64,000 bases of DNA, taken from NCBI RefSeq assembly GCF_001949145.1, contig NW_019091362.1, positions 1,991,838 through 2,055,837 of the forward strand, read 5' to 3'. This document shows, piece after piece, positions 1,968-48,429 of the stretch. Source of the DNA: Acanthaster planci (Eukaryota). Positions within the stretch are counted from its first letter, which is position 1, and each line of letters starts with the position of its first letter. The notes under the pieces were generated by a model. The model did not search any database. It was not told the origin of the DNA and was given only the letters and a program-made list of their open reading frames with translations. A program made the position numbers and the translations under genes.

Positions 1968-2081
1968 ATCCATGCGACAGTAATCCTTGTGTCCATGGAG
2001 AGTGCCACTCTAGGCCTAATGGCGGATACAGGTGCCAGTGTAAACAAGGGTATACTGGAGACAAATGTGAAATAGAACCAG
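1968..2081 (+). CDS. Gene 1 exon: EGF-like domain
   Basis: ctag|ATCC...CCAG|gtacgt, 114 nt, phase 1-1; [38 protein letters not shown] (6-Cys EGF pattern). Confidence 0.9.
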
Positions 2082-8000: not shown

Positions 8001-11000
8001 TACAGGTGCCAGTGTAAACCAGGGTATAGTGGAGACAAGTGTGAAATAGAACCAGGTACGTATGTTTTGATCCCTTATTAATGGGTTCGCAGTTAGTGTA
8101 GTGGAACACTGCAAGCAGTTTTGGGGCAAGACTAGCTCAAAACTGGCATAAAGGGCCAGGTTGTTCACCATTATCAAGCCCTCCCTATATCGCTTAGTGT
8201 TTAAAGACCCTTTGCAGGGTGATGAATGCCGTTCTTTTGCGCAGTGAGTTTTGTTCAGAGGCACTGTTGAAGTCTCTTCAGAAGTCCTGTCTGATTTTGT
8301 GATAAGCATTTTTTTCTGCTGTGTGTGGAATGAATACAAGTGGTCGTGGAGTTCATCGTATCACAGACTGAAAAGTGACCTCTGAAAATTGACTGATACC
8401 GCAACCATTGGATAAGAAAACTCACGTGCAAAAACCGGTAGTGGAAGGCTATTCAAAGTTCATGTTTAGGATCATCTCAGTTCCCTTACTAATAGTTTTG
8501 GTAATCTTGAAAAAGTTCAGACTGAGACCAATTCTTCTCGATTAGATAGCACCGTGGGACGGAAAAAGTTGACAAATGTGGCTTTGTATTGAAAGGATTA
8601 AAAAGGTTACTGGGTATGGCCCGTGCTACACAATGACTTTCTGCTTCCGATATTCCTGTAAATCTGTGTACCTCTCGCATGCATGTTGGTACATCTGCCT
8701 CTATTCGCAAGGAGGCAGAGCATTTTCGATTTACGGAAGGATATTGTGGCGGGACGACTGACACCTTTTGTGGCGAGCCCAGTAGACCGGCCTGATAGAA
8801 GATGGGATTTACCTGGCCTAACCCCACAAATATATTTAATAACCTTGCGCAAGGACGAGCGGCTACCCAGACACAAGGGGGGATATCAGCTAACGAGCGG
8901 CGGACTAAGCTTAGGAGCAGTTCGTTTGGTGGAAATTTACCACCGCTTAAGAAAGATCCATCTGGCAATAAGGCAATTAAATGAAGGAAAACCTAAATCA
9001 GCCTCACAATGACACAGGATTTCCAAGGACAATTAATCAAGTAATTGGTTTAATGCAATAATAAATCAATGAGGTATATAAATATCACAAGGTTTATTTA
9101 CACATTTATTTATTTATTCATTTATTTATTCCATTTCTTTATCCAGGGTATGCCCAAACAGTTACAAACTTGTTTCCATTGGGGCCCTGTGATCATTACA
9201 AGTTAATAAAATAGTTGGAAAATCCCAACGAAAAGTAGAATTCACATCAATATTTACAAATGCAAACCACTAAAATATCACACACAGTGAACATTTAAAT
9301 AATCAAGGCATTAATTAAATACTTATCACGGAATGGGTGAACCCCCCCCCCAAAAAAAAAACACTATGGGAAAAAAGAACACGGGGAAATTCCCGATCCG
9401 GCTCCAGCGAACATTGGCAACCAAGTTTACTACTCCATAGATCAGCGTTTTGGACTTCACGGCACTGGTCATGACTTTCCGTAGTTCTGATTTGAATGTC
9501 CCTGAGGAGTACAATACTTCTGAGTTGTTCTGGCAAATTGTTCCTTGTTTTTGCACCACTCACGGTAAAACTTTGAGCGTAGCATTCTTTTTTAGCTAAA
9601 GGGACTTTAAGTGCCTTGTTAACTGAGTTTCTTGTTTCACGAATCTGTGTGAATGGCATAAATAGATTGTCATACACATAGGAGTCAATTTGTTTAGACA
9701 TTTAAAAACAAGAACAGCCTTTTTAGATCAAACTCTCTCGTAAAATGGTACCCAGTTCAGTAAAGTCCGATTAGTGCCTCCAGCTTAGCTAAGGACAAAT
9801 GGAGCCAGTAATATCTTAGCGATATTTTGTGGTGTTTTGGTTGCAATTAGCTACAATTTATGGTTGCGACCAGAGGGAAATATGTCTCACATTAGCTCTA
9901 CCTTTGCCTCTGGAATACACTTTTGCTTCGTTACACTATCCATGAAATGTATGCATTTTTATTTCCGTCCTTCCAAAACTTTAGTTTTCAAAGACTTGGT
10001 TCGAATTTAGCTAAGACTGTCCAACATAATGTTGACCATCACTGGACAGCTACATTCATAACGAACAAAATGAGCTATTTTATCACAAGGAGTGATCATG
10101 AGATCTCATAAAATAAACATTTTTATTAACATCGCAATGGAAATGATTGAAATAAATCACAAATCACATACACAACCTAAACTATATTAGTTACGTACAT
10201 ATATAATATATTTACTTAGTATTAAGTGTGTTGGTGGCTTTACTACAGGGTGATATGTCCAGTGCAGTGCAGTTGGTAAAGTTGGTATTGCACTCCCTGC
10301 TTTCTACCATCTGCTGCAGCCGCTGGTCGGGGAGGGCAGCCGATTTTTTTTAAGTCTTCCCCTGCCAGTACATAGCCTCTCCAACACAAAGACTCCTGTA
10401 GTGCCTCTTCGTGGCAGCACACGGTAACTGGGCATCTTGCAGCCCCAGGCTGACTCTGCAGCGGATCTCGGAGCAGCAGTGGTCCCCAGAGACATGGGCC
10501 CACCCGTAGGCCCATATGCCCTGATTACATGTCAACCACTGCAGATAGCAAAGGCTAAATAAGACCTGTCAATTGGCGGACGATCCTTTCTGAGGGAGAA
10601 CGGCCATCTAGCAACATCGTTTTTTGCAGGTATTGAATGAACAGCCAGGGAGATAACCCTGTCACAAATCTGGAGTGGAGCCCTACAGGCGGTCGGCTGG
10701 CTTTGTCTCATGTTAACCCCCCAGCAGCTCCTGCATCCCTGCTCATCCCAGTTGTCTTGATCCCGTCCTGCCATCAACTGGATACGAATGATCTGGGACG
10801 AGAGGGTGAGGCTGATGTTGCGCGATTCTTTCTCGCCCAAATTAACTTCAGTAGCGCAAGTTATGACTTCAAAAGCCCTGTGGTGATGGGGGAGTGGCGA
10901 ACCAGAAAGTGCGGATTACACTCAGGCTACTGTCACAAACTTGCACACAGCCGGCTCAGGCCATACGGTCGCTATCCATTGGACTGAGGTGACAGTGGAA

Positions 11001-14000: not shown

Positions 14001-17000
14001 ATTTGCGCCGACTGCATGCAGTGAGAAAGGTCAAAGAGACAGTCATAAGGGACTTCCTCTTCGCTGACAACTGTGCTTTAATGCCACTAGTGGGAAGTCA
14101 ATGTATGCAAGCTATTACTGATAGGCTTTCCAAGTCATGGGACAACTTCGGCCTGATCATAAATATTATGAAACCTGAAGTTACGTGCTAACCCCGCCCT
14201 GGTAAGCCCCACCAGAAACCCAACATCACAGTTAAAGGTACTGGTCTTAATAATATGCATGTGTTCACATATTTAGGCAATACTCTGTCACATGAGGCGA
14301 ATATTGACGAAGAAGTCGAAAGCAGAATCGCCAAGGCCAGCAGTACCTTTGGGAGGCTTCAAAAAGCTATCTGGGAGCGATGGGGTGTCAGGCTTAGTAC
14401 CAATCTCAAAGTTTACCAAGCTGTAGTTATCACTGCACTTCTTTACACATGCCTAGCCGGCAGCTGAACCATTTTCGTACTGCCTGTCTCTGTAGGCTGA
14501 TGAGAATTAGATGGCAGGATCACATACCCGATACGGAGGTCCTTGCCCGTGCCAGTATGCTTAATAAAATACCCTCATTGAGACCATGACTTCAAACTTG
14601 CTGATTGATAGAGTGTCTTCAGAGATGGCTGATGAGTCCAATCTGTGCGTGGAACTGTCTGCCAAAGATTGTACACATTACTTCTTCAGACCAATATTAT
14701 CTCTCGTTCGCTTAGGCTCGTACAGTTTCAACCTTTGAGGATGAATTTCACCTTCATTATTAGGCACGTTCGCACGAACACTTTTTTTTTTAGTGACAAT
14801 CGGTTGTCCCTGGTATAGTATGGAAGAAAGACAGAACTCACGACGATAAGGTATGTTTTGCTCCTTGTTCGGGAATCGTATGTTGATACCATAATGAGCT
14901 TGAATTTTTGAAGAAGTGTTTAATGCCAGATTCTTCGTAAATACCTTGCTTTTAGTTACATACATTTCCTCTTGAGACCACTATCATCTCTCGTTCACTA
15001 AGGCTTAAAGTTTCAACCACTGAGGATGAATTGTACCTATATTAGTGGGCACGTTAGCACGAACACTGTTTGTCTACTCACAATCGGTTGTCCCTGGCAT
15101 AGTATGCACGTAATACTTCCTGGGTACGAGGACAATAGTCCAGAGGTCGACATATTACCGTTGCGCTTACTCTCCGACTTCTGTCGGTGGGGATTAATTT
15201 GTGATATCAATATGACTGTTTCGAATAATTGTCACCACTTTACCCTCTGCCACCTGCTATAAACCCACCCACATACGAATTTATCCGGACGACTCTTGAA
15301 CAGGCAGGTGAAATGGATTCGCAGGTGATACAGGAGTAGATCTCGGATTGAGAGTTAACGCCCCCACGCTTTGGCACCGGAAACATGTATTCAAACTGAA
15401 AGAACAACAGTAAACTAAAAGAAATGTTAAAAAATCTGACAGGTCTGATCCCTCCCCCATCCTCTCCTGTAATACGACGAATAACAGACTTTTCGTTCCC
15501 ATTCAGGTGCAACCGGCAGACTCGCTACAAATGACGTAAAATACAAACTAAGAGGTTGTCTATTGTATTTCCTATTGTAAGGAAATATGGATTGGGCTGT
15601 CAACAGGCAAAACCAACTTAAAGAATCCCTTTTTGGAATGCCCATGTACTGCAGTACAGTGTAGACAAAAAATCTTGTAATCAGCTGCAAGATCGAATCA
15701 ACAGTGATGAAATGTGAGAACTGCAGCACTGAAAGTTTAATCACACTTTAACAGTATTACATGCGATTCACAATAGTGCGCCTCCTCGAGTTTGCAACGC
15801 GTTTGGCCAATCACAACGCGCGAAATCTGTTGACCCTTTCCAAACGCGCATTTGGTCGACAGATTTCGCGCACTGTGATTGGCCAACGCGTTGCAAACTC
15901 TTGGTGGTGCCATTGTTGAACGGCCGTATTAAAGAGTTTCGTTATGTTGAGTAATCCTTGAGGATAGCAAACTGTATGTACTTTGCATAATACCTCACAC
16001 GTGGCTTTTTTGAACTTCTGTACAGGTTCTCAAATAGTTTCAACGGCGTTTAGCATTGTCGGTAAGCCAACAGAGCAAAGCACAACCCTCAACCCAAGAT
16101 TTAAAGCGGATAAGGCAGTGGACGGTAGCCCCTCAGCTCGCCTGTTACCTGATAACACCTGCACACACACCGGTAAGACGATTCCTTCCGCTCTCTCCTT
16201 CGAGAGCAGTATGAAGCAATTTCTGTGTAGTTTCTTTGTCGAAACGACCAATTAAGATTATGTCTTTGGTTGGAAATTGCCTACGACAGTAATAAATCGC
16301 TCAATATTTCTTGTTAGTTCCTCCAATCTCTTCATTAGGAAACCCCATTTTTTGTTTTGATTTTAGCCATATTGCATTCAGACTTACTTTATTCAAAAGT
16401 TGTTTTTCCTGGGATTCACTGGGTGGGTTTTAAACCACCTGGTAAATTGTAGACCACTGGGCCTTACCAGGTACCAGCCAAGTTGCTGAAGTATGGCGGG
16501 TTTACCCTCGCAGCTGAGCTCCATAGCCTTCTGAATGCCTTTGGAGCCGTGCCACAGTCCTGGAAGGGTGCCAATATTGCTGACATCTATAAGCGAAAGG
16601 GCGTATGCGGAAACAGTCGTGTCGTATCGCTGTTATCCACTGCTGGAAATGTCTTAGCCTGAGTCATGTTGGACCGTTTGCTTTCCGAATTAAGAAGTGG
16701 ACAATGTCTTTCCCGAGTCTCAGTGTGGCCTTTGTCGCGAGCGCTGGACTGAAGACATGATCTTTGTCATGCGCCAAATACAGGAAAAATGCGGGGACCA
16801 GCACTGCGACCTGTGCGCCGCCTTTATCGTTCTGAAAAAAAAGGCATTCGATACGCTTGACCTCGAGTTGCTGTGGGCGTTATTCACAAGATCGGCTGTC
16901 CTCTAAGGTTCACTGCCTGCTGAACGCTTTCCACGCCGACATGGCTGCCCGAGTACATTATTCCGGAAAGGTGTCAGCGTCGTTCCTTATTTCTATGGGC

Positions 17001-20000: not shown

Positions 20001-23000
20001 GCTAAAACACGTCACGTTTCCTCTGAGATTATCGAGTGGAGCTGCTGTTATAGTACCAAGTTTGATAGGTCGTCTTTCTTATTCTTTTTTTAATAGTTAC
20101 GTTGATAACACACTTGGAAGTCCAGAATGATAAGGGCATGAAACTGAATTCCGTCAAATTTCCAAATTGGTGTATGAGCCATAAGAAGCTGAAATTTGCC
20201 GTGGATTTCATCACAACCGGCTTCAAGCTCCTGATTATAACATCATCCGGAGAGGAGAGATTACTGACTAAGTATATAAAAAAGAGCAACGAGAAGTTCA
20301 CCTGCGAATCTCTGAAACTGAAAGCCCAGAAAAAGAAGAGGTGCAAAGTGGAATACAAACCAAGGAGAAGATGTCGAGGTAAGAGGCTAATTGTCCTGAC
20401 GGGTTTCAGGCTGTATAATACCCACTCTGCAAATACGGGCCTTTCACAATGGAGTGCCTCCAAGAGTTTGCAGCGCGTTGGCTAATCACAATGCGCGAAA
20501 ATCTGTCCACCTAATGCGCAATTTGAAAGGGTCGGCAGATTTCGCGCGCTGTGATTGGCCAATGCGTTGCAAACTTTTGGAAGCTCACTATTGTGAAACG
20601 CCCGCTTTATGTTTTGACTGCAAAATGGCTTTATTTCAATATTTACAGGGGTGATGGGTGTTTCAATTAGATTTCCCCAATCTTTAAAGTTCTGACTATT
20701 GAAGACATTTTTCCGACAAATAATTTGATCAAATTATTTCTTTTAAACCACTCGAATAACTATTAATAGGAAAGTACGGAAAGTATCTGAAGAAAAAGCA
20801 CGGTAAAAGACGAGGTAAGTTTTCCCACAAATGTTCTGTGAATTAATTTTGGTGCGAACATTGTGTTTAACACTGGTAGTTTCGTTTCGTTAATTCATTC
20901 ATTAATCTCAAACAATGTTGGCAATTGACGTCCTTCAATGGTTGTAAAGCCAATTCTCAAAACGTATTTTGACTTATTTCATTCGCGTTTAAGCACGATT
21001 TCTTATTCAACTTAAAGGAAGTCTCTCCTTGTCCAACCAGAAAGTCCTTCCATTGAAAAATTGGAAACATGGCTTGGGCAACAAGATCTGGGAATTAACT
21101 GTTAACAACTGATTTCTTCAAAGACGGGGGTTGGAATACGCACCCCACGGCTGTAAGATGGGTTAACATCAGGATTAAAACTACAGCCTTTGAAAATGCT
21201 TGGTTAACAATGATGGACATCAACACGCTTTACTCCAACATTTTTCTTGAACTTAATTATCCTGAACACTTTACTCTTTCCTTCTATTTAAACTTTCTTT
21301 TTATCAGTTAACAAGACGGAAATATAACCCAAAGAGAATGAACTTTCGTTTCATTTCCTGTTAGATGACATCAATCATATTAAGCAGAAAGGAAATAAAA
21401 CGTCGTAGACTTGGTTTTTCTCTCACTTATATAATTTTCTTGATTGCAAATTAAATTGAAGCAAACAATTTGAGTTTGTATATGAGTAAAGTGGAAACAC
21501 TGTTCCTATTTTATTGTAGAATAATTGAACATTTCTTGTTATCATTTAATAATTATAAAATGTAACCCGATAAAGAAGGAATGATTTTTTTAATTTTTGT
21601 GCTGTAAGATATGGATCATTTTCAGCATAAAGAAAACAAACGTGTAAGCCTCTGTTTTTCTCTCACTTATATAACTTTCTAACACATAACTTAATTCGGA
21701 GCAAAGAATTTGAATTTATACATGAGTAAAATAGGAGAACTGTTCCTATTCTATTTTCTATAACAGATATATGACATTTGGCAGTGCAAAGCCTATTTCA
21801 AATATAATTTATATTAACATGGAGTCCATTTTCTTCCTTATTTCATAGAATCCCATTTGAAGAAGAAGCACGGTAGCAGTGAGTATCACAGTTTAATCGA
21901 TCCTGTGAAAAAATGTTTTGATTCCAATTTCTGTTGCCAAATTAATTTTAAACGACAACTTTAGACACTAATTTCTCGCACGTTGGATCTTTTACCGCTA
22001 GTGCCAAATAATGATGACCTGATCTGATGATTATCTAGCTGAATCACATTAAATGACATTACAATATACCATGACCACCCTTCACCTTAGGAAACAATAC
22101 TGAAAACTTAATTCAATCATTTTTTAAAACAAACAAACAAACAAACAACCCAACACCCCAACAACCCCCAACAAACAAACAAACAAACAAACAAAACCAC
22201 GTTTGGTTTCATCATTACGAAGCTTAGCATTTCTGATAGAATATTGACAAAACTTGGTACATCGCAAAAAAACTCAAATTTCTGTACAACAATCGCGTCC
22301 TGGTGTATCATCAAATCCATGAAATATACATACAATTTGTCTCTATTTTGTAGGTAGTGGTATTTAATTCATAAATTCAAAGATTTTGAAAGGAAGAACC
22401 AGACAATATGTATTGTTTAATTTTGTAGGCTCCTCCTCTGGAAGGAAGAAACACCACAAGAAGAGTGAGTTGAATATATTTTTCGAGTAATCGGGTTTCA
22501 ATATTAAATAATTCAAATGAGTAACTCTATTCTTCTTTAATTTTACACACTACATAATTGCCCATATTTATATTAACCTCGTATTCGAAGGGGCGCTGTC
22601 TAAATATTTCCTACATAAATTGGATTTTCTACTCTCCCTAAAANNNNNNNNNNNNNNNNNNNNNNNNNNNNNNNNNNNNNNNNNNNNNNNNNNNNNNNNN
22701 NNNNNNNNNNNNNNNNNNNNNNNNNNNNNNNNNNNNNNNNNNNNNNNNNNNNNNNNNNNNNNNNNNNNNNNNNNNNNNNNNNNNNNNNNNNNNNNNNNNN
22801 NNNNNNNNNNNNNNNNNNNNNNNNNNNNNNNNNNNNNNNNNNNNNNNNNNNNNNNNNNNNNNNNNNNNNNNNNNNNNNNNNNNNNNNNNNNNNNNNNNNN
22901 NNNNNNNNNNNNNNNNNNNNNNNNNNNNNNNNNNNNNNNNNNNNNNNNNNNNNNNNNNNNNNNNNNNNNNNNNNNNNNNNNNNNNNNNNNNNNNNNNNNN

Positions 23001-26000
23001 NNNNNNNNNNNNNNNNNNNNNNNNNNNNNNNNNNNNNNNNNNNNNNNNNNNNNNNNNNNNNNNNNNNNNNNNNNNNNNNNNNNNNNNNNNNNNNNNNNNN
23101 NNNNNNNNNNNNNNNNNNNNNNNNNNNNNNNNNNNNNNNNNNNNNNNNNNNNNNNNNNNNNNNNNNNNNNNNNNNNNNNNNNNNNNNNNNNNNNNNNNNN
23201 NNNNNNNNNNNNNNNNNNNNNNNNNNNNNNNNNNNNNNNNNNNNNNNNNNNNNNNNNNNNNNNNNNNNNNNNNNNNNNNNNNNNNNNNNNNNNNNNNNNN
23301 NNNNNNNNNNNNNNNNNNNNNNNNNNNNNNNNNNNNNNNNNNNNNNNNNNNNNNNNNNNNNNNNNNNNNNNNNNNNNNNNNNNNNNNNNNNNNNNNNNNN
23401 NNNNNNNNNNNNNNNNNNNNNNNNNNNNNNNNNNNNNNNNNNNNNNNNNNNNNNNNNNNNACGTTCTTTTCCCTCTGATATTCTTCAAAGTTGAATTCTC
23501 CAAATGCAACGAGTAACACAATCGCAAATTACGTGGGAAAATAGCATTTTGTAGTAGGGTGATACCTTTGTAAACTTGAAAATAAATTTGTTTCCGTCTT
23601 TATAACCCTCGTCGTTGATAATGGTACTCAACTAACTTTGTGATAATGTTTCTCACTAGGTTTTTATTTCAATTTAATTTTAATTATTTTTCTCATTAAT
23701 AATTGCAAAATGCAACCCAATAAGTTGGAATAAATATATCATTTCGTTTCTGCTGCAAATCATGAATCACATTTTACAGAAATTAAACAAAACATTCTTG
23801 CCTTGGTGTCTCTCATTATTTTCTCACACAAACGTAATTTGGAGCAATTTGAATTTACTCCTGAGTGAAGTTGAAATAGTGTTACTATTCTATTCTCAAT
23901 AACAGATATGTGACATTTGGCATTTTAAAGCCTATTTCAAATATAATTAATATTATTATGGAGTCCATTTCCTTNNNNNNNNNNNNNNNNNNNNNNNNNN
24001 NNNNNNNNNNNNNNNNNNNNNNNNNNNNNNNNNNNNNNNNNNNNNNNNNNNNNNNNNNNNNNNNNNNNNNNNNNNNNNNNNNNNNNNNNNNNNNNNNNNN
24101 NNNNNNNNNNNNNNNNNNNNNNNNNNNNNNNNNNNNNNNNNNNNNNNNNNNNNNNNNNNNNNNNNNNNNNNNNNNNNNNNNNNNNNNNNNNNNNNNNNNN
24201 NNNNNNNNNNNNNNNNNNNNNNNNNNNNNNNNNNNNNNNNNNNNNNNNNNNNNNNNNNNNNNNNNNNNNNNNNNNNNNNNNNNNNNNNNNNNNNNNNNNN
24301 NNNNNNNNNNNNNNNNNNNNNNNNNNNNNNNNNNNNNNNNNNNNNNNNNNNNNNNNNNNNNNNNNNNNNNNNNNNNNNNNNNNNNNNNNNNNNNNNNNNN
24401 NNNNNNNNNNNNNNNNNNNNNNNNNNNNNNNNNNNNNNNNNNNNNNNNNNNNNNNNNNNNNNNNNNNNNNNNNNNNNNNNNNNNNNNNNNNNNNNNNNNN
24501 NNNNNNNNNNNNNNNNNNNNNNNNNNNNNNNNNNNNNNNNNNNNNNNNNNNNNNNNNNNNNNNNNNNNNNNNNNNNNNNNNNNNNNNNNNNNNNNNNNNN
24601 NNNNNNNNNNNNNNNNNNNNNNNNNNNNNNNNNNNNNNNNNNNNNNNNNNNNNNNNNNNNNNNNNNNNNNNNNNNNNNNNNNNNNNNNNNNNNNNNNNNN
24701 NNNNNNNNNNNNNNNNNNNNNNNNNNNNNNNNNNNNNNNNNNNNNNNNNNNNNNNNNNNNNNNNNNNNNNNNNNNNNNNNNNNNNNNNNNNNNNNNNNNN
24801 NNNNNNNNNNNNNNNNNNNNNNNNNNNNNNNNNNNNNNNNNNNNNNNNNNNNNNNNNNNNNNNNNNNNNNNNNNNNNNNNNNNNNNNNNNNNNNNNNNNN
24901 NNNNNNNNNNNNNNNNNNNNNNNNNNNNNNNNNNNNNAAGTTCCTTTTCCTTTAATTTCACTTTCTGCTGTTAATCATGAATCACATTTCACAGAAAGAA
25001 AAGTGTCCCTCATGTTTTTCTCACACACAAACGTAATTTGGAGCAATTTGAATTTGCTCATGAGTGAAGTTGAAATAGTGTTACTATGCTATTCTCTATA
25101 ACAGATATGTGACATTTGGCAGTGCAAAGCCTATTTCAAATATAATTTATATTAACATGGAGTCCATTTCTTTCCTTATTTCATAGAATCCCATTGGAAG
25201 AAGAGGCATGGCAGTAGTGAGTTTGAAAGTTTAATAAATTCCTAACTAAAATATTATGATTCTGACTGTGAGCCCAAGCAGTTGGTTTCATGTTTTCCTT
25301 GAGATATGTTTAGGCTCATGCCACATTGCAGTCCATTACTGTTATTAATTTTTGTCTATTTGAAGCAACTATTTACGATGTACCGAGACATCAGAACTAC
25401 AATGCTGCAAACTTAAGTTGCACATTTTAGATTAGTGACAAAAAGGTTTCACGGGATCAAGTTTGAAATTTCTTATCAAATATCGGCGAAATTTTGGTCA
25501 TTGATCAAATTGCTGTCCGACAAGTCATTGTATCTGGTGTGAGGATGCTCCATGAATTATGCACACGTGTAATGTAGCTCTTATTGTCGTGTTGGTATCT
25601 GGTATTTAGGTTTCAAATCTCACGTTGTCTTAGGAAGATCCAAACAGTTTTTATTCGTTTATTTTCAGGCTCATCTGGACGGAAGAAGCACAGGAAAAGT
25701 GAGTCCGTCTGTGAAAATGTCTGCATCCTTACTTTCTTTTATACTTTTGGTAGATGGGTATCGTTTTGTTTAACCCCACATTCCATAGGGTTCAGTGAAA
25801 ATTGATTAAAGTGATGAGAAAATCCCTTTTCTTTGTCTGATATCTTGTTTGCCATCTAAACCTCCGTGTCTTGATCAGCGTGAGTATTTAAAATACAACA
25901 GCGGGTCCCGTGTCGTAGTTCTGCGCTGTCATTTACTAGCGGTGCAGTGCATCCAATCTCCCGATCTGGTCTGGAACTATTAAACCGACCAAGAACATGT

Positions 26001-29000
26001 CTTTTTCCCATAAATATGTACCATTTTAGTAAAAGATTCAAACGAATTTAATATGCCATAAATTTCGACAAATTTGTTCAAAAATTTTTCTTTTATTTCC
26101 CCGAACTCTCCCGTCAATTTGATGGTATATTAGTTGTCCAGAAGAAAAATTATGGATCTGGCGCACGCGTGGTGAGTTCTGCGTGCTGCGTGCACACAGA
26201 CTCTTAACCAATTGGAATCGCTTATTAATCTCATCTCATAATAATACGTGGACTGAAGAGGGCGTGAAGCTAGTTCGCTGTCCGTCCTGACCATTTGGCC
26301 CTGGTCGGCCTGACTTTCAATGTCCAAATTCGTCTAAATTGCGTTTCGGTTTAAAAGTTATGCAGGCTTGTCTAATCATTATATGTGTTGCTGCAGCCTG
26401 CAGTAACACATCTGATCGGCATTATCCCTAAAGCCCCCCAATTGGCTCAATACCAGTACCCGTGTGTATTGGTCGTGGTGCCCCAAGTTTTTATACGCCA
26501 CGCACGACACGCCACGGAATGACCGTACCGTGTACGGCAATTTTACCAGTGCGTGCCAGCATTGTACACGTACGTAGGCTTAGAACATTCTGCGGGAAAG
26601 TAAATTGTGCGTGTGCGATGTCCATGTTTCCCTTAGGTCAACACGAGACAAAAAGGATGTCCTGATTATAATTGTTCGCAAATGTACGTCACACCTAACG
26701 CCATCATTTGTCAGGATTGAAACATTAATTTGAGGGGTTAAGGAAAGTAATATACCAAAGGGATTTTTTTCCAGATTTACATCCACTACCGTATTCAATG
26801 CGTGCTAGAAATATTTAAATCAATTAATTATTAATTAATCAGCAACCTTGCAATACACATTCGGCGAAAACACCTTAATAACAATCCAGTATTTGTTTCT
26901 TTTTAGTGTGAAGGTATTAATGGAAATTCATATATTCATCCACGTCCAATTTGTAACCCTTTGCTGTAGATGATGCTTGGTTACCAGCAGATGTACTCTA
27001 CATGAATACCCAAACTCATCCTTACCTTTCTTTTGGTCTCTATTTGAAACTTTCAACTTAATCATCATGTAATGGCGAAAGGTACCAAACAAAATGGGGA
27101 TTTAAACTGAAGTTCATTTTCTTTGCGTCACTTTCTTCACGGTATTGTGTTGATTTCTTTCTTTCTTTTAACCTTTTCTCTTCATTTCCATTTTCCGCTG
27201 CCTAGAAGCACTACAAAAACAGTAGTTCAGTGGTTTTTGTTCATTTATCGAGTTTTTGTCGCATTTTAATCCCAAACCTAACATTTTCGCTGTTGGTGAT
27301 GCTTGCTCATAAGTGATCTATGTTTAAATTGAAAATCTTCACTTTCATCTATAATGACATGTAATTGCAAACGTACCAAACAAAACTCGGATTTAAAACC
27401 CCGAAGTTTATTTTCGTTGCTTGAAATCGACCATTCATGCTGAACAGAAACAAAGCATAGTAAAGTTCGTGTGACTTTTTTATTTCAAGTGGAATCAGAA
27501 ATCATATTCTTCTGTCACTCTCTTCATGTTGCCAAACCCTGCGTCAATTTCTTCATGGTATTGTGCTGCTGTATTCCAGTTTTGTATTTTTGATGTGTTC
27601 TCCTACTTATCTTTTTCAGCTGTCAAGAAGTACCGCAAGAAACGTAAGTTCAGCGGTCTTGCTACTGTTAAAGCCTTTGTTACATTTTATGTTATAAAAA
27701 AATGAAGCCAAATATCCTAGTTTAAGAGCAGCTACCTCCTTTCGTTACGAATGTAGTAGAAATGGTTTTTAAACTGCCTTCTATGTTTTACTTTGATGCT
27801 CTTATTGGATTCACTCTCTAAATAAGTCGGTTTAATCAAAAAATAATTAAAATTTATATATTTAAGTAGATTGGAAGTGAGCGCAATGTTAAACACTAGC
27901 TTCTAGATGTTTGTATGTTTTTCCTGCCTTGTCAAGAGATGTTTTTTCTTGTTTTGTTTGTTGTGAAATACATTCCTCTAAATCCTTTTTCGGGCAGAAT
28001 TATCTAAAAAGAACAACTGCTAAAAAAGAAACTGCAAGTTATATTCACAAGTGTTTATTTTGTTTTTCATGTTTTGACTATTTTGAAAACAAACCTTGGA
28101 TCGGCCAAATGTACAGTTGGTCCACAAAATAATTTTCCATTGTTTTACCATGCTGACAGTCGTTGGCGTAAATCTATGCCGGGGACTGGGGATGGAGCAC
28201 TATTTCAACTCACAAAAAAGCCCGGCCGTGTACATTCCAAACGCGGGGGTATTGATGGACGCTGTATAACACCAGGGGGCGCTGTTCATAATACTCATTG
28301 TAAACCCATTTAAACTTGCACCCTTACAAATCGACCCATCTAAAGCTTATGCACTTTTTGTGGCTTTTCATTATTAATGAAATAGTGTTGTTGGGCAGTT
28401 CAGAGTATACTTCAGAATGCGCCATTTTTTTTTCTCATCACAAAAAGTGAGGGGATGATCCAGTATAGCCCATGACTGGTCAAAAAGCAAGGGGATGTAC
28501 ACCCATATCCCCATCCACAGAATTTACGCCCGTGCTGAGAGTTAGTTTACAGGGAGCCATATTTTGATATGAAATGCCGACATTTGGCGCGCTTACACCG
28601 GTTATATAGTTTTCGTAATAATGCCAAACTGGTATACATTACTTTGCAGGTTATCGAAGACGGTCTGGAAGCGGTAGTGGTACGTTAACTTGTTCTTTTC
28701 ACATTCATATGTACATTGTGTCTGTCTTGTTCACCTCTGTCTTTGTGTAACAGTGTGTAGCAATGGCGTAGGTAGGCTTTGGAGGGGGTCAAGGAGTGGG
28801 AGGGCAGTTGCTCCTTTTGACTCCATGCACCCTTTAGGTATGCCACTGACTTTGTACAACGGGCGGCTCATTCACAAACATGTTGAATAGGTCAGTGTCT
28901 ACACCAGAGTTACGCGTATAGTACCGATGACTTGGAGATGAGTGACCTCCCTCTCCCCCAAAAGCTCGATTTTTCTGAGGGGCAGGGGAGTTCCCGGGGG

Positions 29001-29200: not shown

Positions 29201-29949
29201 CTGCAGGATTTGATTAAAGGCCATAATGAATACATCAGACAATAATGCATTTTTAATTTTGTCGCTCACACCAGATTAGACGGAGAGAGTCGAAAGAAAA
29301 TGGATTGGAATCGGCACCAGGGTGAGTGTACTAACGCAGTGAAAGAGAAGTGTGAAGTGGTTTAGTCGCTTTGACTCAAATTCTTACACTCCATGTTAAT
29401 AAGTACATAAGCAACGGAGCAAATACGTTTAATATGGGATTAATAACAGCAAGTTATAGCTCCATGAAAAGTTAGAATTGCGAATATCAACAGAACTTTA
29501 GTCTCGCTACTTGCATGGCATGCAGGCACGAAAATTCAATCGATTTATCAGCATTCTGCCTTAATGTGCGATGCCTAAAGTAAAGCCCTGTTGAAAAAAA
29601 TCAGAATCTTAGAGAGTTTCAACATATTCACCTTGAAAGAACTACTCACAAATTTAGGATGTAATGTAAAAATTGTGTGGTTTGGCCCCATGTGCTTCGA
29701 ATGTACGTCAGTACCTTAAACCCAAGGCAACACAACAAGTAGTTCATTCATTCATCACATCTAGACTTGACATGCACAATGCTACCTATTATAGTATCCC
29801 ATAGTAGCGATTACACAAACTTTGAAAGGTACAGGTCACTCCTGCTTGACTGGTTACACAGTGCCCTCGCACTCATAGGCTGGGCTTCACGTACATTGTC
29901 AGACCAGCCAACCTCTGAAATCACAAAACTGTATACTGAAAATGCCAAA

Positions 29950-30340
29950 GTTGTATTTTTCACTTTACAAAATCGTATTTTTCAAAAATAAGTATATTTT
30001 TCCGTGATCGGTTCGACCAACTCTGGATCGAGTCAATACTTCTTCACGCATAACATTAATCAGGCGACAAATCTATTATCGAGGTTTGTGGACTGGGAGA
30101 GTTGGCCCTTTTCCCATCTGATTCGCCAACGTTTTCAAAATCTGAATACTTTGTTACAAAGAATGCACATTGCGCACGTCCAGGCTTTCGGGGTTTCCGT
30201 ACGGGGATTTGAGTCTACCGCACGCAAATCTCCGATGTAATGCACCCACTTCCATTTCCGAGGATTCGTAACTTCAGGACCGGTCTTATCAAAGTTTGAA
30301 TCTAAGTCAGAGATTAGTTTGGACACTTTATACATTTGTG
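29950..30340 (-). mobile_element. Possible decayed DNA-transposase N-terminal (BED/hAT-like zinc finger) fragment
   Basis: Minus ORF RKWKW...AMCILCNKVFRF resembles CxxC zinc-finger starts of hAT-like transposases; stops follow. Confidence 0.3.
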
Positions 30341-31648
30341 TTGCACTGACATTTTGCTCAGTTTATATCCAAAATTGTTTGGAATCTCCATGAAATCTCG
30401 TACGAAACAATGCATGTAGAGCATGCAAAAGCGCGATAATGCACGACTGTACGACTTTTCCCCGCACTTGTCACGAAGCTCTCTATCGGAGAAAGCGAAA
30501 ATATACTAACCTTATTTCAAGCCGCAAATTTACGGTGAAATGCATCACGCGTTATAGGGAAGATTGTTAGTCGACCAACTCTGCTGACGAAGGAACGAAA
30601 ATAAACGTGAATATTGATATTTCATGGGTAGCCCATCAGAGCACAACGATAGCATGGTTCTACAATTCTTGCACTGATAACTGTTAGCACGTATACGTAC
30701 ACACATCATGTCAACGCGGTATGTACCGGGCTGCGCCATGGCTGGTGGGCCTGCAGTACATGTACGTGTATGTTGAAAGTACTGTAGCGCCGGCGGGTTC
30801 GGCCAGTGGGGGCGCCAGCTCGGACCCGCATGGAGTTGGCTGGCTGCCCGCGCTGGTATGCGAACGACCCGCAGTTTTCCCGCCTTGCGCCTGCGCAGTC
30901 CCTGCCGACAGGCGCCATGTTTAGAGTTGAGCTGAAAACGCATTGTTGTGGATGACAGCATTAAAACAGATTTCGTGACCAAAACAGCGAGTTGCGGCTG
31001 TGTATGATTCTATACCAGCGTTGAACCCTGATCAGTAGGACACGCTACAGTACACACAGGCCCTACATGTACATGTCATCTCTCCAAATTTGGATGGTAA
31101 AATTCGGCCTCTTAATTTCTGGTAGTTTGAAAACAGGGAGACACTGAAATGTCTCCCTAAAAGCCAAAGTCTCCCTAATGCTGAAAAATTTACCACAAAA
31201 TGTCTCCCAAATGACCTATTTGTAAATATAATGCTTACTTTTTCTTGAGTTTTCACGTGTTACATATAAACGAGAATACTACAAAAAATCAACATCTGAC
31301 AGCACCAAAAAGCCGTACGCACGCCCCCTATCCCCCCGTACGCTTTGTACGACCGTGAAAATGTTGGAAACTTGTATTTTGTACTCTTTAATTTGATTCC
31401 ACTTAGCCTATTCTGGTGTTTTTAACAGAACCGTGCGTGTTACAAATTTAATATTACTATTAATGTCAATGACACAAAGTAAACAGCTTGCCAGTCAGAT
31501 TTTGGGATTTTGTTCAGGTGTTACACAAAATAAAAACAGTCCAATTGTGCATAATTTATCATTTAGATTTATTAAAAGGTCATTAAAAGGTAATAACAAA
31601 TGTGTTTTCTGGATTAATGTTTTGTACTCTTTTTTGTTCTCTCCTTAG

Positions 31649-31770
31649 ATTCTGTGAACTTTGCAGGATCCTCGGAGGACACACGACATGAAATGTATTT
31701 TCATGATTACATTTTAATTTTAGCTAAATTTACGAAATTGCTTGTTTCTGTGCATGTGGTTTCTCTTTAG
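31649..31770 (+). other. Gene 1 probable terminal exon (3' UTR, or alternative coding end)
   Basis: Strong acceptor ctcttttttgttctctccttag|ATTCTGTGAACTTTGCAG; resembles gene 2 last exon (ATTCAGTGAGCCTTGCAG); open in phase 1 to TAG 31768-31770. Confidence 0.55.
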
Positions 31771-34700
31771 GATGACTACGCTATTCCTATGTTATATTTA
31801 TTTTAGTTTAATTCTATTTTAATTACCGTTCTCAGGTTGAAACAGTTGACGTTTAAATTAAGTTTTAGTGTACACACTAAATGGAAATAGAATTGTTGGC
31901 TGCATTCGAACAAAAATATGTTAACAAAGTTAGCCTTTAGCTAAAGTACTTCACGGTGATTAAAAGGTTGATTTTCTCAAATCACATAATCTTAGCAATA
32001 CAGCAACATAAAAAACCACGTTTATTACAGTTACCTCATTTCATGTGGAATCCATCCGAACAAGTCGTTTGATTTTGTTATATATACATGTACATCATTA
32101 GACACTTATGCATTCTATAGTTAATTACTAGATTGTCCAATCTAGGTCTTGTGTGGACCTTGTCCTGTGGTTAGCAAATAATATGCTGCGGTATGAGGGC
32201 AGACCAAGCTCATATTGTTCTCATTTGCTAATCACAATTGTTTCCAGAGACATGAAGCTCGTGCCTTCCAGGCAGCAAGGAAAACAATGTTCACCTTAAG
32301 AAAGTACAGTTTTTGTTGATTTAACTGGTGAAGTTTAAATTTTTGCGGATTTCATGTCATGATTTTTAAATGCTGAGGGTTTACCTCCTAAGAAACGTAT
32401 TTCGCTTAATGTGACTGAAATACTGGTCTGAATTTTGTGTGAACCTTGCTTGCTCCCTAATCCTCGAACAATTTTAATGATAGTCCTGTGGAGAATGAAG
32501 GAAATCCAGTTTGAAATCGCAAGTGTTGCTTCTTCCTTATAGGCCTAACCCTCAATTTGAAGAATTTTATTGAAAAGAGTTGAACTGACAAAACTAATCA
32601 TTCCACATAATACGACATTCCACGACATTTTAAAGTCTTCCGTGAAAAGTTTTTTTGTATTTTTTTCTGCTGCTTTTTATCCTTTCGTGCCATTACATGC
32701 ATTTCTAAATCATTTAGAATATTTTACATGCAGCACAGACGGGTTTCCCGTTGATTAAGGTTACAGATTGGTCATTGTTGATATTCCTAACCATTTGCAC
32801 AGGTGACTTTTCCTCCGAAAACCATGTTTAATAAAAAAAAAATAATGATATCGCCCTAGCTGTTCCCCAGTGGTGAGGCCCACCTTGTTGCTGCACCAAA
32901 GGGCCCATATTTACGGAACGGAAAGCGATACACAGTAATGTCGTGCGATATATTACGTTTTTACACAACAGCAAGAAACGACACAGTTTTTAAGTTAATG
33001 ATATTCCACATCAACAATGAAGTAGCAGCCAGACCATCAGATCGTGTCTAACTAGAAGGCTAATTGGCAAGAACACGCAGTCTCAGCTCGGTATCTTTGG
33101 GAAAATTACTTGTTGCAGCGGTTTGTCAAGAGACTACGAAGTATGTCTGCTCTGAATGTGAGCAACCTACAGAAACTTGTGTGTATTAGGCTATACTTTG
33201 GACTGCGCGGAATTCCCTCACAGCGAGCGTGAGAAATAGGCCTAAAATGTGCTCTTTTTGAACACTAACAGCAAACAGCTAATAGCTTGTTGCCTGGCTT
33301 TTCGTTTTGTATTCGGCGGTTCCTAGAGTATAACGAAGGAATTCAAGAGGCCTGCTGCCACACCCAGGCCCTCTTCAGAGGGAATTTGTGCGCCGAGAGG
33401 CCTTGCTCTGCCAAACGTAGCCAGGAAAAATGACATTTCCCCTTTTAGTTCCCAAAACAAGTCTCGCACACTAAACTACTTAGAAAGGCCTTTAGGTTCA
33501 GTATGAAAGATGGCATATAGTTCACACAACATTCAGACCATTTGATATCAATCAAGTTTTATATTTGGGTGTTTGGCCTCAGTTTATTTTATCATTAGTT
33601 CATCACAATTTTCTGGTGGCAGGTTTGAACATTAAATTACGCAAGCATTGATTCCTATATGTGTCTTTTCATTTATTGAAAGACTTAGTAGTCGATTTAG
33701 GGCTTCATCTTTGGCACAGGTTAAGTCTCTTCTTTCATGAATGTGTCATTTCTCGCTGCAAATTTTTGCGTTGGTGAAGTGCATACATTGTAATTTGTTT
33801 AGTGTTTTGGAAGACACACTCTTGGTTTTACCAACGATGTTGTGAGGGTGGAGATTTATTCAACGTATTCAAAATGCAACTTTGTCTTTTTACTATTATG
33901 GAGGGCTGGTGAAGGTGAAGGAGTTAAAATAAAAAGGCACCCACACCAGGGCTGCAGTCACTCCGTTTATTTCTGAAAGGAGCAAGCGGTGTGCAGGCCA
34001 GCAGCAAGGAAAAGACAGCACGTTGGGGGAATCAATTGCACAATTACAAAAATGACAGAAAAGGAAAGAAAAGAAATCCCATCAGTGAAATGCAAAATCG
34101 TCACCATAACAGACCCTATATACGAAGTAAAATACATGAAGTTCTAAACAGCCGTTCCTTACTATGGCTCAATTGTCAAGGTTTGAGAGCACATCCTGGA
34201 CTTCACAGTAAATCTCTTTTAAGAACACATTATAATAATCCCAAACATCAGATTACACTGTTAATGACAAAGAATTAGTTCAAACTGCCATTACATAGTG
34301 CCAAATTAAGCTTTTTACAGTGAAAGTAATGATTAAGTATCATTTACCTACTGTAACATGAGATTTCTCTCCAAAAGCAACAATTTCTCAAGAGACTAAA
34401 TCCAATTGATTGGAAACTCTGACCTTTGTGTTCTCATGTGCATGTGTTCTGTGAATTAGTCTAATCAACCAAAATACACCATGCGCAATGACCTACAAAA
34501 GCAATTTCAATCACCAAGAAGGAGCCTACATACTTTCACTATAATAATGTATACACACAAAAATATCAATTAAACGCTGGGAGCCCCCTCGACTGAAATT
34601 GTGATTACAGTGGATGACCAGCCGAATATACTTTTCTTAATGTGAACGCAAGAGGGCGTCCTTTGAACATTGTGACTTACGGGAAAGAAAATTCTAGTTT

Positions 34701-38229: not shown

Positions 38230-40850
38230 AGTCAGAGGCACATTCCTTGCCCCAAGGCAGGCATAAGATCCCTCCCTCTGAAGGAGGTCGGTTCACACAC
38301 ATGTTGTTTGTGTCTGTGGAGCCGACTGTCTTTACGAAAGCCGGTTTGGGAGACTTCAGACGAATTGACGGCTGAGTGACTGATGGAACTGCATGAACAG
38401 AGGCAGATACCTGTATACACCAAGGCTTTGGTTGAGATGGTCAGGCGCCTGTTTAGGAAGACATGATCCAGCAGACCCGCACCAAAACCGCAAGAGGCCT
38501 TTCGGGTGCGACTCTGAATTCCCTTGTCGATCGAGTATGAAAAAGACAGAATAGAGCCGAGGCAGTCGAAGCTCTGGGCAGACTTGATGGGCACGTCACC
38601 CGATTGTAAGTAATGGCATGGTAGTGAGTCGTCCTCAGATCTGTGGGGCTGGCAGACGATTTCCCGTGAGCATTAATGACTAAGCCGGCGCTGGTGAATG
38701 TAGAAGGCATAAAATGAGGATTGTGTTGCGTGGCAGGGAATCCAGAGTGAGAGCTGGAAAAGATGCATCGTCGTTATATTGGAGATTGGAACAAAGCAAA
38801 TTTTGGTAACGACCTGCAGTTTGAACAAGTTGAAACGTTGCCATCCAACCGGTAGCTAAACGTGAAACCATCGCTGAACATAAGGTCTTGCAACAAGAAC
38901 GAGATTAAAGATAGCCCGCGACAGCACACATTCTTGCTTCACATCAACGTTGGCCGCAAAAGGCTCTGACACCTGCTCAGCAAAGACAACACGAGCTGAC
39001 ATATTGTTATTGATGTCTTTCGGGAATAGCGGTGCACTTCGGTGGACATCTACATTTTGGCAAGAATGCTTCATGGGATCGCCCTGTTCACTTATTAAAA
39101 AATGCTTTTGCTAAACTGACAAGGGTCTTAGGTCAATCCGATAAAATAGATAAATATTTGAAGCAGCCACGCCACTAAAATTATGTCGGTGGTTCTGCGA
39201 CCCTTGCCAAAACCACATCGGGGACTCAGGGAAAACGACACCGACTACGGTACAGAGGAGGCGGGAGAAAAGGATACGGGCAAGAATTTTGCCAGCTGCC
39301 GCAAGCAGAGAGATGCAGCGATAGTTTCTGCAAGATCTACGTTGTTTCCATCTACAAGTAGCCTGACAGCGTTGGAGGACTTCCACTACTGGGATACGAT
39401 GCCTGACGCCAAGACGTCTCCGATGAACTGGTGGCGACGAATAAGAGTGAAATACCCACCATACTTTAAGACTTCCGCTCGAAAACCTTCTTGGTCAGCA
39501 GCCTTTTTGTTCTTGAGGACCTTCACAGTGTTACACACCTCCAAGGATGGAGACATGTCAAGCTCAATAAAAATTATAGGTAGCCAGTCGGGAAGCGATT
39601 TCCAAAAGAAGGGACACGTGTGTTGCCCCGTTTCAGGAGTTTGCTGAGGTGTTTAACCCAAACAATACCAGGGCAGTTCTTGATGAAGACTGTACCATCC
39701 GCAGATCTTAGAGTAGCTCATAAGCTGCGGCGGGGCCCATACGCGCCTCTAAAAAACGGAAGAGTTGATATCCCCGTATTTCAGAATTTCTGCAAGTTTG
39801 CTAGCCAGCAGACGTTTTCCATCTGGGGCAAAGCAGTTTGTGTCTAAGAGCGCAAGACTTTTAAATTTTCGAGAAGCCGGGTGGATGTATAGTGTTGCCC
39901 CGGATAAGCCTCATCGTGAGCATGGTTTTCTTGGACTATGAGATTCTGGATCGCTGCCAAGTTGTCATCAAACCAATCCTGATGTCTGCTACTTGAATAC
40001 CCATAAACTGTCGTCGTAGTGGAGTATAGAGTGGACAATAGATGACCCCACTCCTCTGTCATGTCTCATAGCTTGAAGAAGCAGCTGTGTCATGAGCAGG
40101 AGCACCCACAAGGGCGGCTGCAGGAGAACCTCTTTGATCAGAGATCTTATCAGGGACCTTAAACGGACCTCAATTTAATTGCTGGGACTTGCCCTGTTTG
40201 CGGACGGGGATCTGATCCTCAGCCTGTGGACGGACCGGATGAGACGATGGTAAGTCCATCAACTTACCCACGGAGAACACGAGTGATGCAGACATACCGG
40301 GGTTTTGAGATATGGGTGATAATATAATCAATGATTTGTCAGTGCGTAGAGCAAGGGTGCATCCAGTGGTCTTGAATTTCTCGGGCATCTGGAAACACGT
40401 GTTAGTAACTACCAGACCATGGGCGGCAAAGACACTTAAAAGGTGCAGAGCATTGGAGTTAATATTACCAGCGCCGTGTCTGCCAAAATCCCTGCCCGAA
40501 ATCAATGATCAGAGACAACCCCGGCATTAAAAGCGCAGTTGAAGATTGTCTAATCGGCATGAAGATTGCAAAACGCGTCGCAAACATCATCAGCCTCAGG
40601 CATAGCAAATGAGTAGAGTCGTAAAAATACTCGGCTGTTAGGGGCTGCATACATTCAACAGGCGTTCACTGATCCCAACACGGGACTTTGGTAGTATCGA
40701 GAGAAAAGAGGACTGGATATCAAAACCAATGCCGTGAATGCACTTGGCACCCTCCAGGAGGCTCTTCCAGAGGAGAATATAGCCTCGGCCAACCTTCTCT
40801 GTAGAGTCTTCCCCTGGGCCACCCTTTCTAGGTCCCTCCTTGGAGAAAAG
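38230..40850 (-). mobile_element. Degenerate RTE-clade LINE (endonuclease + RT remnants)
   Basis: Minus strand: GRHGAGNINSN..LVVTNTCFQMPEKFKT, HQDWFDDN, CRNYRCISLLAAAGKILARIL, VFPES, DVKQECVL, SFDCLGS, KASCGFG, LTISTKALVY. Confidence 0.88.
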
Positions 40851-40859
40851 TGTGCAGTA

Positions 40860-43065
40860 AAGACTTTAACAAGATTATGGCGAATTTCTTGGAAATGCCA
40901 CAATAAAGATTCTAAACATGGCGGTGTCAAGATGGTTGATTTAAGTTTATGCATTGAAGCTCTTAAGTGTACTTTGATCTGTAGACTGTTGAATAGCAAC
41001 ATTTCTAGCTGGGTTTCTTTTGTTTTATAAGATTAGTGATATTCAGAATGTTGTTTATCGTTGAATGTATGTTGTTTATCGAAGGTGATCATTTTAGCAT
41101 CACTTACAGCGCGTTCCCACTTGAATTGGGAAATAGTGGATCTTGATCCAGCATTTTGGTGTGATCGTTATCTTACCGCAACAAAACCGCAAGTCGCGTT
41201 CCCAGTCCCGCTTGATCTACCTTTTCGGACGGAAATGTCAAGCCCGAAAGATCACTGAGTTCGGTATTGCGCATGTGCTAGCTTGCTGAGCACGCGCTGT
41301 GGCAGTGTGGCGTGCTGGGCGGCATGCCTGTGACCCTGCGGTGCTTTGGGTGCGGAGTTCTACTGACGTGACGACCTTGAATCGGATCGAATGTTCAGCC
41401 CAGTACGTTGTCCCTTCAAACTTTGCTTCTGTTTTTGATACTCTGCCACACGCTGCGGGCTATACGCTAACACGGAATTAGTTTTTGATGGAAAGCAAGT
41501 GAAATTACACAAATGAAAAAGGTTAAGAAAGGGACGAATGCGCAACGAAAATTGTGAAAGTGCGAGGCACACATCGCGGCATGCATGCATTGCGCATGCG
41601 TGGTGACACATTTTGCTAGCCCGTAGTTCAGCAGCTGTTTAGGCCTATTGTGCATGCTATGCACGTTAAAAATTTCACATCAGCTACACGAAAAAACGTA
41701 TTTCTTTGTTCATCAGACCGCAAAAGTTTCGCGTCACTCGTGCACGGACGGATGTTGACAGGTCAAATTGCCGGATCAGATCCACCTTTTGCATTCCCAT
41801 CTGATCGTGATCCGCCAATTGCAGGATCAGATCCACCAATTGGGGGATCTGTATCCTGCTCCAGAGGAGGATCAAGACAGGTGGATCTGATCCTGATCCA
41901 CCTCATAACGGTTAGCGTTCCCACTACACACAATTGCCAGGTCTGATCCACCAATTGGGGGATCTAATCCGGCAATTGGGCAAAAGGTGGATCAGATCCC
42001 CCAATTGGTGGATCAAGTGGGAACAGGCTGTTATTTTCTTTAGCAGGTGAAGTATCCAAATGAGTTTTTGACTGATGTTTTTAAAGCCTAGAGTCATTGT
42101 GTTCAGTTTCGTGCCCCTTCTCAAGGGCAGGATATGCTTGAAAATGTTTTGTGGTACAACCATAGAATTAAGCACTGGGCTAAAAAGGAGTTAATTTCGT
42201 AGGTGACCTGCTTGATAGTGAAACTTCTTCAGCCTAGATAACTTTATGCTAAAAATTGACATCAGAACCAACCTTTTGGAATACGGCAGCGTTATTAATA
42301 CTGTAAGAAAATCATTTCATATCACATTGTCACGGGTCAACTCCCCTAATTCCTTTTAATTCCTTTTAATTTGATATAAAGGGCTGTACTCGTCTTTATC
42401 ATGTTCTTACCTCTGCATTGAAGGTTGTCTGTAGGTTATTTAGATGGGAAAAGGTGCTGGCTTGTAATCTTCCTCTCTCTGAATGGTTTGAGTTATGCAG
42501 TTTGCCCTTTCAGCTAACATGTGATACTAACATTAATTGCAGCGATGGTTTCAATATAGACTTACTCAATGAATCTTGGCTGTTAACTCTTATTTGTTTG
42601 AAATTGGTAAAAGATATAATGACCTGTGTTCTTTTTGTCAAGCTGAGAGTGAAACCTTGATGCATCTCGTTTGTACTTGTGAGTTTTCCACTTCTTTTTG
42701 GAATTAGATCGGAGATTGGCTTAAAAATACCCTGAACAGTGATATACTTTGGATAACAAAGCTATCTTTTTTGCAATTTCTAATAACTCCAGGAATGTAT
42801 TCAATTTATTTATCTTGCTTTGTCGCTTCCATAGTTATAAGATGAAAATGGACGGCGGTAAACCATCATTTTTATTGTTTAAAGACGATTTTAAAAGATA
42901 TTGTGCCTTAGAAAGATTTATTTCTACCTCTAACGGAAATTCAGTACCAAACGGGGCTGTTTTTCTTGCTGGGTAATTGATTAATGTCTAATGTGAAATG
43001 ACTGTGTATTGACTTCTCTTTTTTTGTTAAATTTAATGTAATACACAAGAGAAACTTGAATAAAA
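40860..43065 (+). mobile_element. 3' part of an L1/Tx1-clade LINE (post-RT region + zf-RVT), interrupted at ~41100-42170
   Basis: GGVKMVDL...ALKC..ICRLL..SW at 40.9-41.0 kb; RWEKVL..EW...LPF..TCDT; RWFQYRL..ILAVNSYL...DLCSFCQAESETLMHLVCTC....FWN (CCHC zf-RVT); AATAAA near 43058. Confidence 0.8.
41750..42020. repeat. Cluster of direct and inverted GGATCAGATCCACCAATTG-like repeats
   Basis: Repeated GGATCAGATCC / GATCCACCAATTGGGGGATCT / CAATTGCC motifs in both orientations; likely subterminal repeats of a DNA element. Confidence 0.7.
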
Positions 43066-46607: not shown

Positions 46608-46668
46608 ATGATGACGGCATCCAAGATTCTACTTGTGCTGGCTGCAATAGTCGCAATGGTCGCCGCAG
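46608..46668 (+). CDS. Gene 2 first coding exon: signal peptide (exon starts 46572)
   Basis: tgtag|GTTAG...GCAACATG (good Kozak); MMTASKILLVLAAIVAMVAA + G|gtattg, phase 1. Confidence 0.85.
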
Positions 46669-47014
46669 GTATTGAATATCCATCGTTAGTTTTAAAAGGA
46701 ACTATGTGAACTTTATCTCTCCTCATCTAAATGACTGAGAATCGGATATCAGCCCAATGTATGAATTGATTGTCAGAAATTATACGTGGTAGGCACAGAA
46801 TGAAAAGTACTACCCAATATGCAAATAATGCTGCCCAAGTGCGAATAACTCAAGAGATAACACATATATTCCATTGCCAGAGGCAAAGTTGAATAGCCCC
46901 GCTAAATTTGACCTTTAATTGTATGCAATTTTTAGAAATGAAAAAGGATGGATCTCCAGACAAAAATGAATCCCCGAAAATTCATTTCAAAACCGAGTTG
47001 GCATAATCTGCTAG

Positions 47015-47150: not shown

Positions 47151-47208
47151 TCAAAGCAAACCTACAATCAGTTTTTGCCTGTGACTACCATTTTTCTCTG
47201 ATTTCCAG

Positions 47209-48388: not shown

Positions 48389-48429
48389 GTAATGATGTGA
48401 CTTCTTGCCCCTTTCCACCCCATTAGTCA

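Follow-up and report, generated by a model that had tools for sequence, protein, structure and literature searches.

How long is the basic tail with which the product of Acanthaster planci LOC110973026 ends, and by what route have the very short exons that encode it been gained and lost? The region concerned, within a window of 64,000 nucleotides of A. planci DNA, is the 3' end of that gene, and an initial annotation had proposed that micro-exons are born and die here by tandem duplication of cassettes of exon plus intron. Our reading, to which we attach a probability of roughly 0.85, is that the tail is built from in-frame micro-exons of which one pair, B and C, forms a tandem cassette, probably in three to four similar copies and one older diverged copy, with turnover probably by unequal recombination. 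All exons and intron blocks discussed lie on the forward strand.

The gene and its spliced tail

The exon at 20097..20378 is 100% identical to P0001, the RefSeq product of LOC110973026 (for which three isoforms are listed), and the exons joined from 19443 on yield exactly the last 259 residues of P0002. FAMeT, EGF repeats, F5/8 type C and antistasin domains come before the basic tail, with Pfam finding FAMeT (PF12248, 2.8e-15), EGF (1.5e-20) and antistasin (1.1e-7) in P0001. The last folded domain of P0001 has no Pfam match. FAMeT clusters head the Atlas ranking for it (PF12248, 0.92; 144 of 256 features), which is a lead only; together with the match to P0001 and the RNA joints it suggests that 20097..20378, the last exon of folded sequence before the tail, codes for the latter part (one half) of what is probably a divergent FAMeT domain. 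The EGF region of the gene, which has a possible frameshift at 6142-6253, has a duplication pattern that resembles the tail's on a larger scale.

As annotated, the tail accounts for 76 of 994 residues and has a pI of 11.8; 65 of the 76 (86%) are Gly, Arg, Lys, His or Ser (23 Lys, 14 Ser, 11 Arg, 9 Gly, 8 His). It is coded by seven exons of 24 to 45 nt, each of phase 1-1 and of a length divisible by 3, and all spliced in RNA: A (20770..20814, 45 nt), a distant relative of the B type; B1 (21849..21878, 30 nt), which stands for about three to four similar copies; C1 (22429..22464, 36 nt); B2 (25187..25216, 30 nt); C2 (25669..25698, 30 nt); F (27620..27643, 24 nt) and G (28650..28679, 30 nt). Exon H (29275..29321, 47 nt) adds the final codon and the stop, and 31649..32389, at a depth of 500-700 per strand, is the first part of a non-coding last exon.

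The gene was at usable depth in one of three raw RNA runs, X23 (about 18% of the run sampled, 14,584 reads placed, 15 of 48 joints displayed); X22 and X24 had 0-2 reads per exon joint and yielded almost exclusively repeat-derived reads here. The micro-exon joints of X23, all GT..AG, number 579 reads for A-B, 3095 for B-C, 725 for C-B2 and 784 for B2-C2, and further downstream 696 for C2-F, 1006 for F-G, 972 for G-H and 1381 for H to the last exon. The candidate micro-exons at 22355, 26638, 26908 and 28754 find no support among the 15 of 48 joints displayed, and a joint between 23698 and 23943, with a 24-nt side, was discarded as unreliable. No exon skipping is seen among the same 15 joints, which are consecutive, so that the number of copies, and not skipping, seems to determine tail length.

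One further joint runs the 'wrong' way. In 2004 reads of X23, with about 191 distinct starts, the end of C is joined back to the start of B, a jump back of 616. The same joint is present in two RNA contigs of X18, a run from another study, with a summed depth of 15,129 as against 2,199 for upstream exons. The C sequence ahead of B in this joint differs from C1 at 22444, and the variant occurs in DNA contigs also. Since the flanking single joints have 579-725 reads, 2004 back-joint reads imply about three extra links and hence, as an estimate, about four units of B1/C1 type in X23.

Repeated blocks, two gaps and cassette number

The intron block that precedes B exons carries two marker motifs, which occur exactly three times between 19 and 36 kb (21791/21819, 23930/23958 and 25129/25157). 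Its three copies are 73-83% identical in pairs, with alignment scores of 132, 158 and 149 where the maxima of 100 shuffles each were 20, 16 and 18. Copy 1, with the B1 acceptor, spans 21509..21848; copy 2 lies within a C-to-B link intron of long type (23463..23974), and copy 3, shortened and with the B2 acceptor, spans 24938..25186, DNA contigs bearing out both of these. A fourth, partial and exon-less copy at 21277..21515 is 71% identical to 21524-21755 (score 93, shuffle maximum 19). The B1-C1 and B2-C2 pairs, exons and introns together, align at 64% over 279 columns (score 51, shuffle maximum 17). Five control pairings scored 9-15, which is shuffle level, and the sequences after C1 and C2, or before G as compared with those before F or C2, aligned no better than shuffles. 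What the initial annotation had said of these blocks is borne out, namely that they stand ahead of B1, of B2 and of the gap at 23975, that the copy before that gap breaks off at 23974, 14 nt short of the expected start of a B exon, and that B-C exon pairs are repeated. The gap starts given there (22644 and 23975) also hold; the second gap ends at 24937 and not at 24938.

What do the gaps conceal? The DNA evidence consists of contigs from four runs, X1, X3, X8 and X11, of which X1 is possibly the assembly's own sample and so is not independent. An X11 contig extends 14 nt beyond 23972 into the second gap and reads a B-type acceptor tract. Identical stretches of 20-26 nt precede both 23463 (X3, X8, X11) and 24938 (X3, X8), and an X1 contig links 23463 to the intron 3' of C1 (joint 22643-23463) through about 85 letters, from which it follows that the right edges of both gaps lie after a C-type exon. 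The first gap (22644..23460, 817 N) can be bridged by only those 85 or so letters of one DNA contig, and therefore no exon inside it is required; it may also hide one cassette (1307-1491 nt), its 817 N matching neither size. The second (23975..24937, 963 N), at whose margins contigs have loose ends (23972 and 24938), conceals one or more B-C cassettes; a single one would need 894 nt. Both gaps would have arisen because a short-read assembly broke at similar copies. The B-type exon that had been predicted within the second gap is thus supported, by the X11 loose end and the C-to-B joints in RNA, while a single hidden cassette is too few: RNA links and DNA depth give an estimate of about two to three.

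The B1-C1 intron (21879..22428) is 550 nt long. All four DNA runs also contain B-C introns of a second type, which differ from it by some 9-13% and lie at a depth above that of the reference type (in X3, 26 other letters in 286 nt). At 21899 the ratio of summed to flanking depth is 3.7-3.9 in X1, 2.3-3.1 in X3, 2.6-4.4 in X8 and 2.9-3.0 in X11; at 22444 it is lower (1.6-2.6). For the link at 23498 it is about 2 (range 1.6-3.4), implying three cassettes, though contig depth is not itself copy number. B2-C2 is at single-copy depth in all four runs. The cassette, two exons in 1.2-1.4 kb, comes in a long type of 1406 nt and a short type of 1222 nt, and a mosaic contig is B2-like up to 25241 and continues as B1 intron from 21921 on. 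No read or contig of X1, X3, X8 or X11 spans the array. Extra cassettes are collapsed in the assembly; where it has one of B1/C1 type there are likely to be, by estimate, about three to four, and the reference gene model is to be corrected to a tail that is likely to be some 120-142 aa rather than 76, the RefSeq version then being 44-66 aa too short.

A candidate for exon loss lies beyond the B-C pairs. Upstream of exon F, within a duplicated block at about 26960-27268, lies a twin of F (27198..27221) with CCG where CAG would be expected, GTAGTT downstream in place of GTAAGT and an in-frame TAG. The RNA bin with its start has a depth below 1 in X23. With acceptor and donor broken, a stop and no RNA use, the twin is dead, as had been suspected. 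The duplicated block around it is likewise real: its alignment to the F block falls into two parts, one of 82 columns at 80% and one of 152 at 68% (score 48, shuffle maximum 18). What had been missed is that the F side is longer by an insert-like segment of some 120 nt. A relic search, run without a shuffle control, returned no exon-like relic besides this twin.

Probable turnover of cassettes and the alternatives

Since all exons are of phase 1-1 and divisible by 3, the reading frame should survive when a cassette is gained or lost: each step of 1.2-1.4 kb would add or remove 22 residues (66 nt), 9 of them Lys or Arg. AT-rich intron blocks may misalign, with crossover or conversion giving new and mosaic copies, and copies lacking splice sites would then decay. 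Unequal crossover is a probable route. As a rival for the route one may envisage template switching in replication, or single duplications, the copies then being homogenised through gene conversion and unequal crossover contributing little. The cassette types do differ by internal deletions (the short type, the B2 type), and the mosaic copy is equally consistent with conversion; yet head-to-tail tracts, each with a unit of its own, in three A. planci paralogues and a Patiria relative fit repeated expansion, by whatever route, and we regard this rival as unlikely.

Two further readings would do away with the array itself. One is that the C-to-B joint comes about by back-splicing, as a 66-nt circle, or by repeated use of the exons of a lone genomic B1-C1 pair. 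A circle would give the jump back of 616 as well; but in the DNA runs there are additional, diverged introns between B and C, along with C-to-B link introns, and the variant at 22444 ahead of B is shared with DNA contigs, which leaves this reading very improbable. Harder still to credit is that the duplicates are uncollapsed haplotypes set in tandem by the assembler, a doubt raised in the initial annotation and one that the two gaps flanking the duplicates might encourage. It is contradicted by the 725 RNA reads that join C1-type to B2, and so in cis, and by depth that is above single copy instead of below it, with B2-C2 at full depth in all four runs; the B1 and B2 blocks are, besides, merely 82% alike.

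Is the tandem array, then, still variable? It may be real and yet fixed in copy number in the species, with turnover in the past and differences between runs due to noise in contig building. The link depth of about 2.0 at 23498, alike in X1, X3 and X11, the single-copy depth of B2-C2 and the divergence of visible copies by 9-36%, which makes some of the duplications old, all suit a fixed array. Against it, X1 has a depth of 3.4-3.9 at 21899 and 22332, where X3 and X11 have 2.3-3.1, and variants are listed in differing subsets of runs: the short cassette type in X1, X8 and X11 and not X3, a deletion of 17 nt only in X1 and X8, and the mosaic in X3, X8 and X11 and not X1, although contigs show presence and cannot show absence. 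On these hints from contig depth and variant lists we lean towards a copy number that is polymorphic among individuals, fixity being possible with the odds somewhat against it.

Paralogues and known systems

X23 contains a second RNA form in which another G exon, of 33 nt, connects F with H (503 reads; in X18 the contig depth is 2275), and the sequence of this form has no match within the window. That it is a divergent allele was considered and rejected, as its peptide is exactly the one with which P0010 and P0011, two isoforms of LOC110991088, terminate; what was seen is that paralogue's mRNA at its 3' end, with different C, F and G exons. The presence of this mRNA means that 3'UTR variants at 41-63% in X23 are not assignable to allele or paralogue, and that the missing cover of B2, C2 and G in X18 carries no weight. 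No publications were found under the two gene identifiers. The tail of LOC110991088 has its own array of three to four B-C pairs, with unit sequences differing from those of LOC110973026. Two units from one gene resemble each other more than units from different genes do, which is what separate expansion, or homogenisation, following the gene duplication would produce. B-type units number one to four per isoform, and 10 of the 12 isoforms are without the F-G-stop end; their ends look like intron read-through, on the strength of their likeness to the B2 donor. A third paralogue, LOC110991192, and LOC119723229 of Patiria miniata have other repeated basic tracts that are 75-77% G, R, K, H and S. 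LOC110973026 is a compact case in which exons have been gained, copies occur as mosaics and an exon has apparently been lost, while arrays arose in parallel in a paralogue.

The mechanism would be of a kind already known. As described in PMC4378929, the KIV-2 cassette of human LPA consists of two exons (160 and 182 bp) and two introns in 5.5 kb and is present in 1 to more than 40 copies. Shared with it are tandem two-exon, two-intron cassettes in cis within a coding gene, the addition by each copy of an expressed in-frame unit (here 66 nt, phase 1-1, with 2004 reads for the C-to-B joint) and paralogous variants among the copies. In contrast to the folded domain of KIV-2, the A. planci cassette, about a quarter the size at 1.2-1.4 kb, has exons of 30 and 36 nt that encode a low-complexity basic peptide, and whereas polymorphism is proven for LPA, it is a candidate only for the A. 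planci array of about three to four copies with introns some 9-13% diverged.

Sea star footprint proteins offer a comparison by domain. According to the main text of PMC9382459, Sfp3, Sfp7 and Sfp8 of Asterias rubens have disordered regions besides their FAMeT, EGF and antistasin domains, and Sfp3-5, 7 and 8 lie on one chromosome. FAMeT with EGF and antistasin is common to these and LOC110973026, while the WAP repeats of Sfp8 are absent from P0001 and present (PF00095) in both paralogues; the three A. planci paralogues are on a scaffold of the same listed length. That main text mentions no Lys-rich tail or exon structure for an Sfp ('lysine' occurs 0 times), and its supplements may hold sequences or composition. 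Word-based searches, which are insensitive, gave no match to an Asterias Sfp, the named matches being from A. planci and Patiria miniata only. With no Asterias match and WAP confined to the paralogues, LOC110973026 is not filed as Sfp7 or Sfp8. By composition the 86% GRKHS tail is like the GRK/GRKHS regions of flatworm adhesive proteins (Tmed-ap3, the flanks of Mlig-ap1), Tmed-ap3 having 3700 aa of which G, R, K, H and S form 87.67% (PMC9229212), a likeness that is probably convergence of composition. The tail is likely to be a polycationic segment of a secreted protein of tube-foot type that would bind a surface or partner, and it is resemblance alone that suggests an adhesive role for LOC110973026. 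Should this be a footprint protein with a variable array, natural variants of cationic tail length in temporary underwater adhesion would be at hand. A bolder and rather doubtful extension is that a polycationic GRKHS tail is a feature of sea-star adhesive proteins of footprint type and has converged on the glue proteins of flatworms, its length governed by a number of two-micro-exon cassettes that segregates among crown-of-thorns individuals and was expanded separately in each paralogue, and so a heritable 'dial' for the charge of the glue.

In schistosomes, micro-exon genes code for secreted proteins by way of many very short exons in succession. LOC110973026 is not a gene of that type: theirs consist mostly of micro-exons, while here only the tail, 76 of 994 residues, is micro-exonic. 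No echinoderm micro-exon array is among the 17 matches listed in the exon-duplication literature. Schistosome-type skipping of symmetric exons has no counterpart in the 15 of 48 joints displayed, though the RefSeq isoforms of LOC110991088 do differ from one another in the number of units.

The EGF exon array of LOC110973026

The EGF exons lie in exon-plus-intron cassettes (window 1862-8530) that are 85-93% identical to one another and are interrupted by three assembly gaps. Four exons of 114 nt each, at 1968, 2636, 5027 and 7942, are intact, while a further copy at 6142-6253 carries a 2-nt deletion and is used by none of the RefSeq isoforms; its frameshift could be an assembly error. Near 503-550 there is a relic retaining only the 5' part of an EGF exon, and isoforms X2 and X3 each lack one EGF.

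The paralogue and a Patiria relative

RNA reads from LOC110991088, the A. planci paralogue with its own B-C array, match micro-exon F (27620..27643) and the start of exon H (29275..29321) at 90% identity or more, which suggests that 3' exons are shared, or have been converted, between the paralogues. In the 3' part of the gene (29275-32389) the stop codon is in the penultimate exon, 42 nt upstream of the last joint. Within a domain 58% identical overall between the two genes, a stretch of some 20 residues (about 850-870 of P0001, the RefSeq product of LOC110973026) is almost identical, which may reflect strong constraint or conversion. In the Patiria miniata relative (LOC119723229, protein P0016) the basic tail comprises 337 amino acids in repeats of about 38 residues, and the antistasin-linker repeats are numerous and near-identical.

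Repeats and a putative neighbouring gene

Decayed LINE-like retroelement fragments were recognized by eye in introns of LOC110973026 (11100-14600 and 16500-17450) and downstream of it on the minus strand (38300-40900). A MITE-like element of 170 nt, whose own sequence shows inverted symmetry, is present as two oppositely oriented copies (15763-15930 and 20432-20601), and in RNA mapping it accumulates a pile-up of reads originating elsewhere. A minisatellite occupies 1392-1545 (4.5 copies of a 34-nt unit). Also read by eye was a putative small plus-strand gene (46612-51700) with signal-peptide-like, WAP-like (about 47211-47332) and antistasin-like (about 48306-48388) exons.
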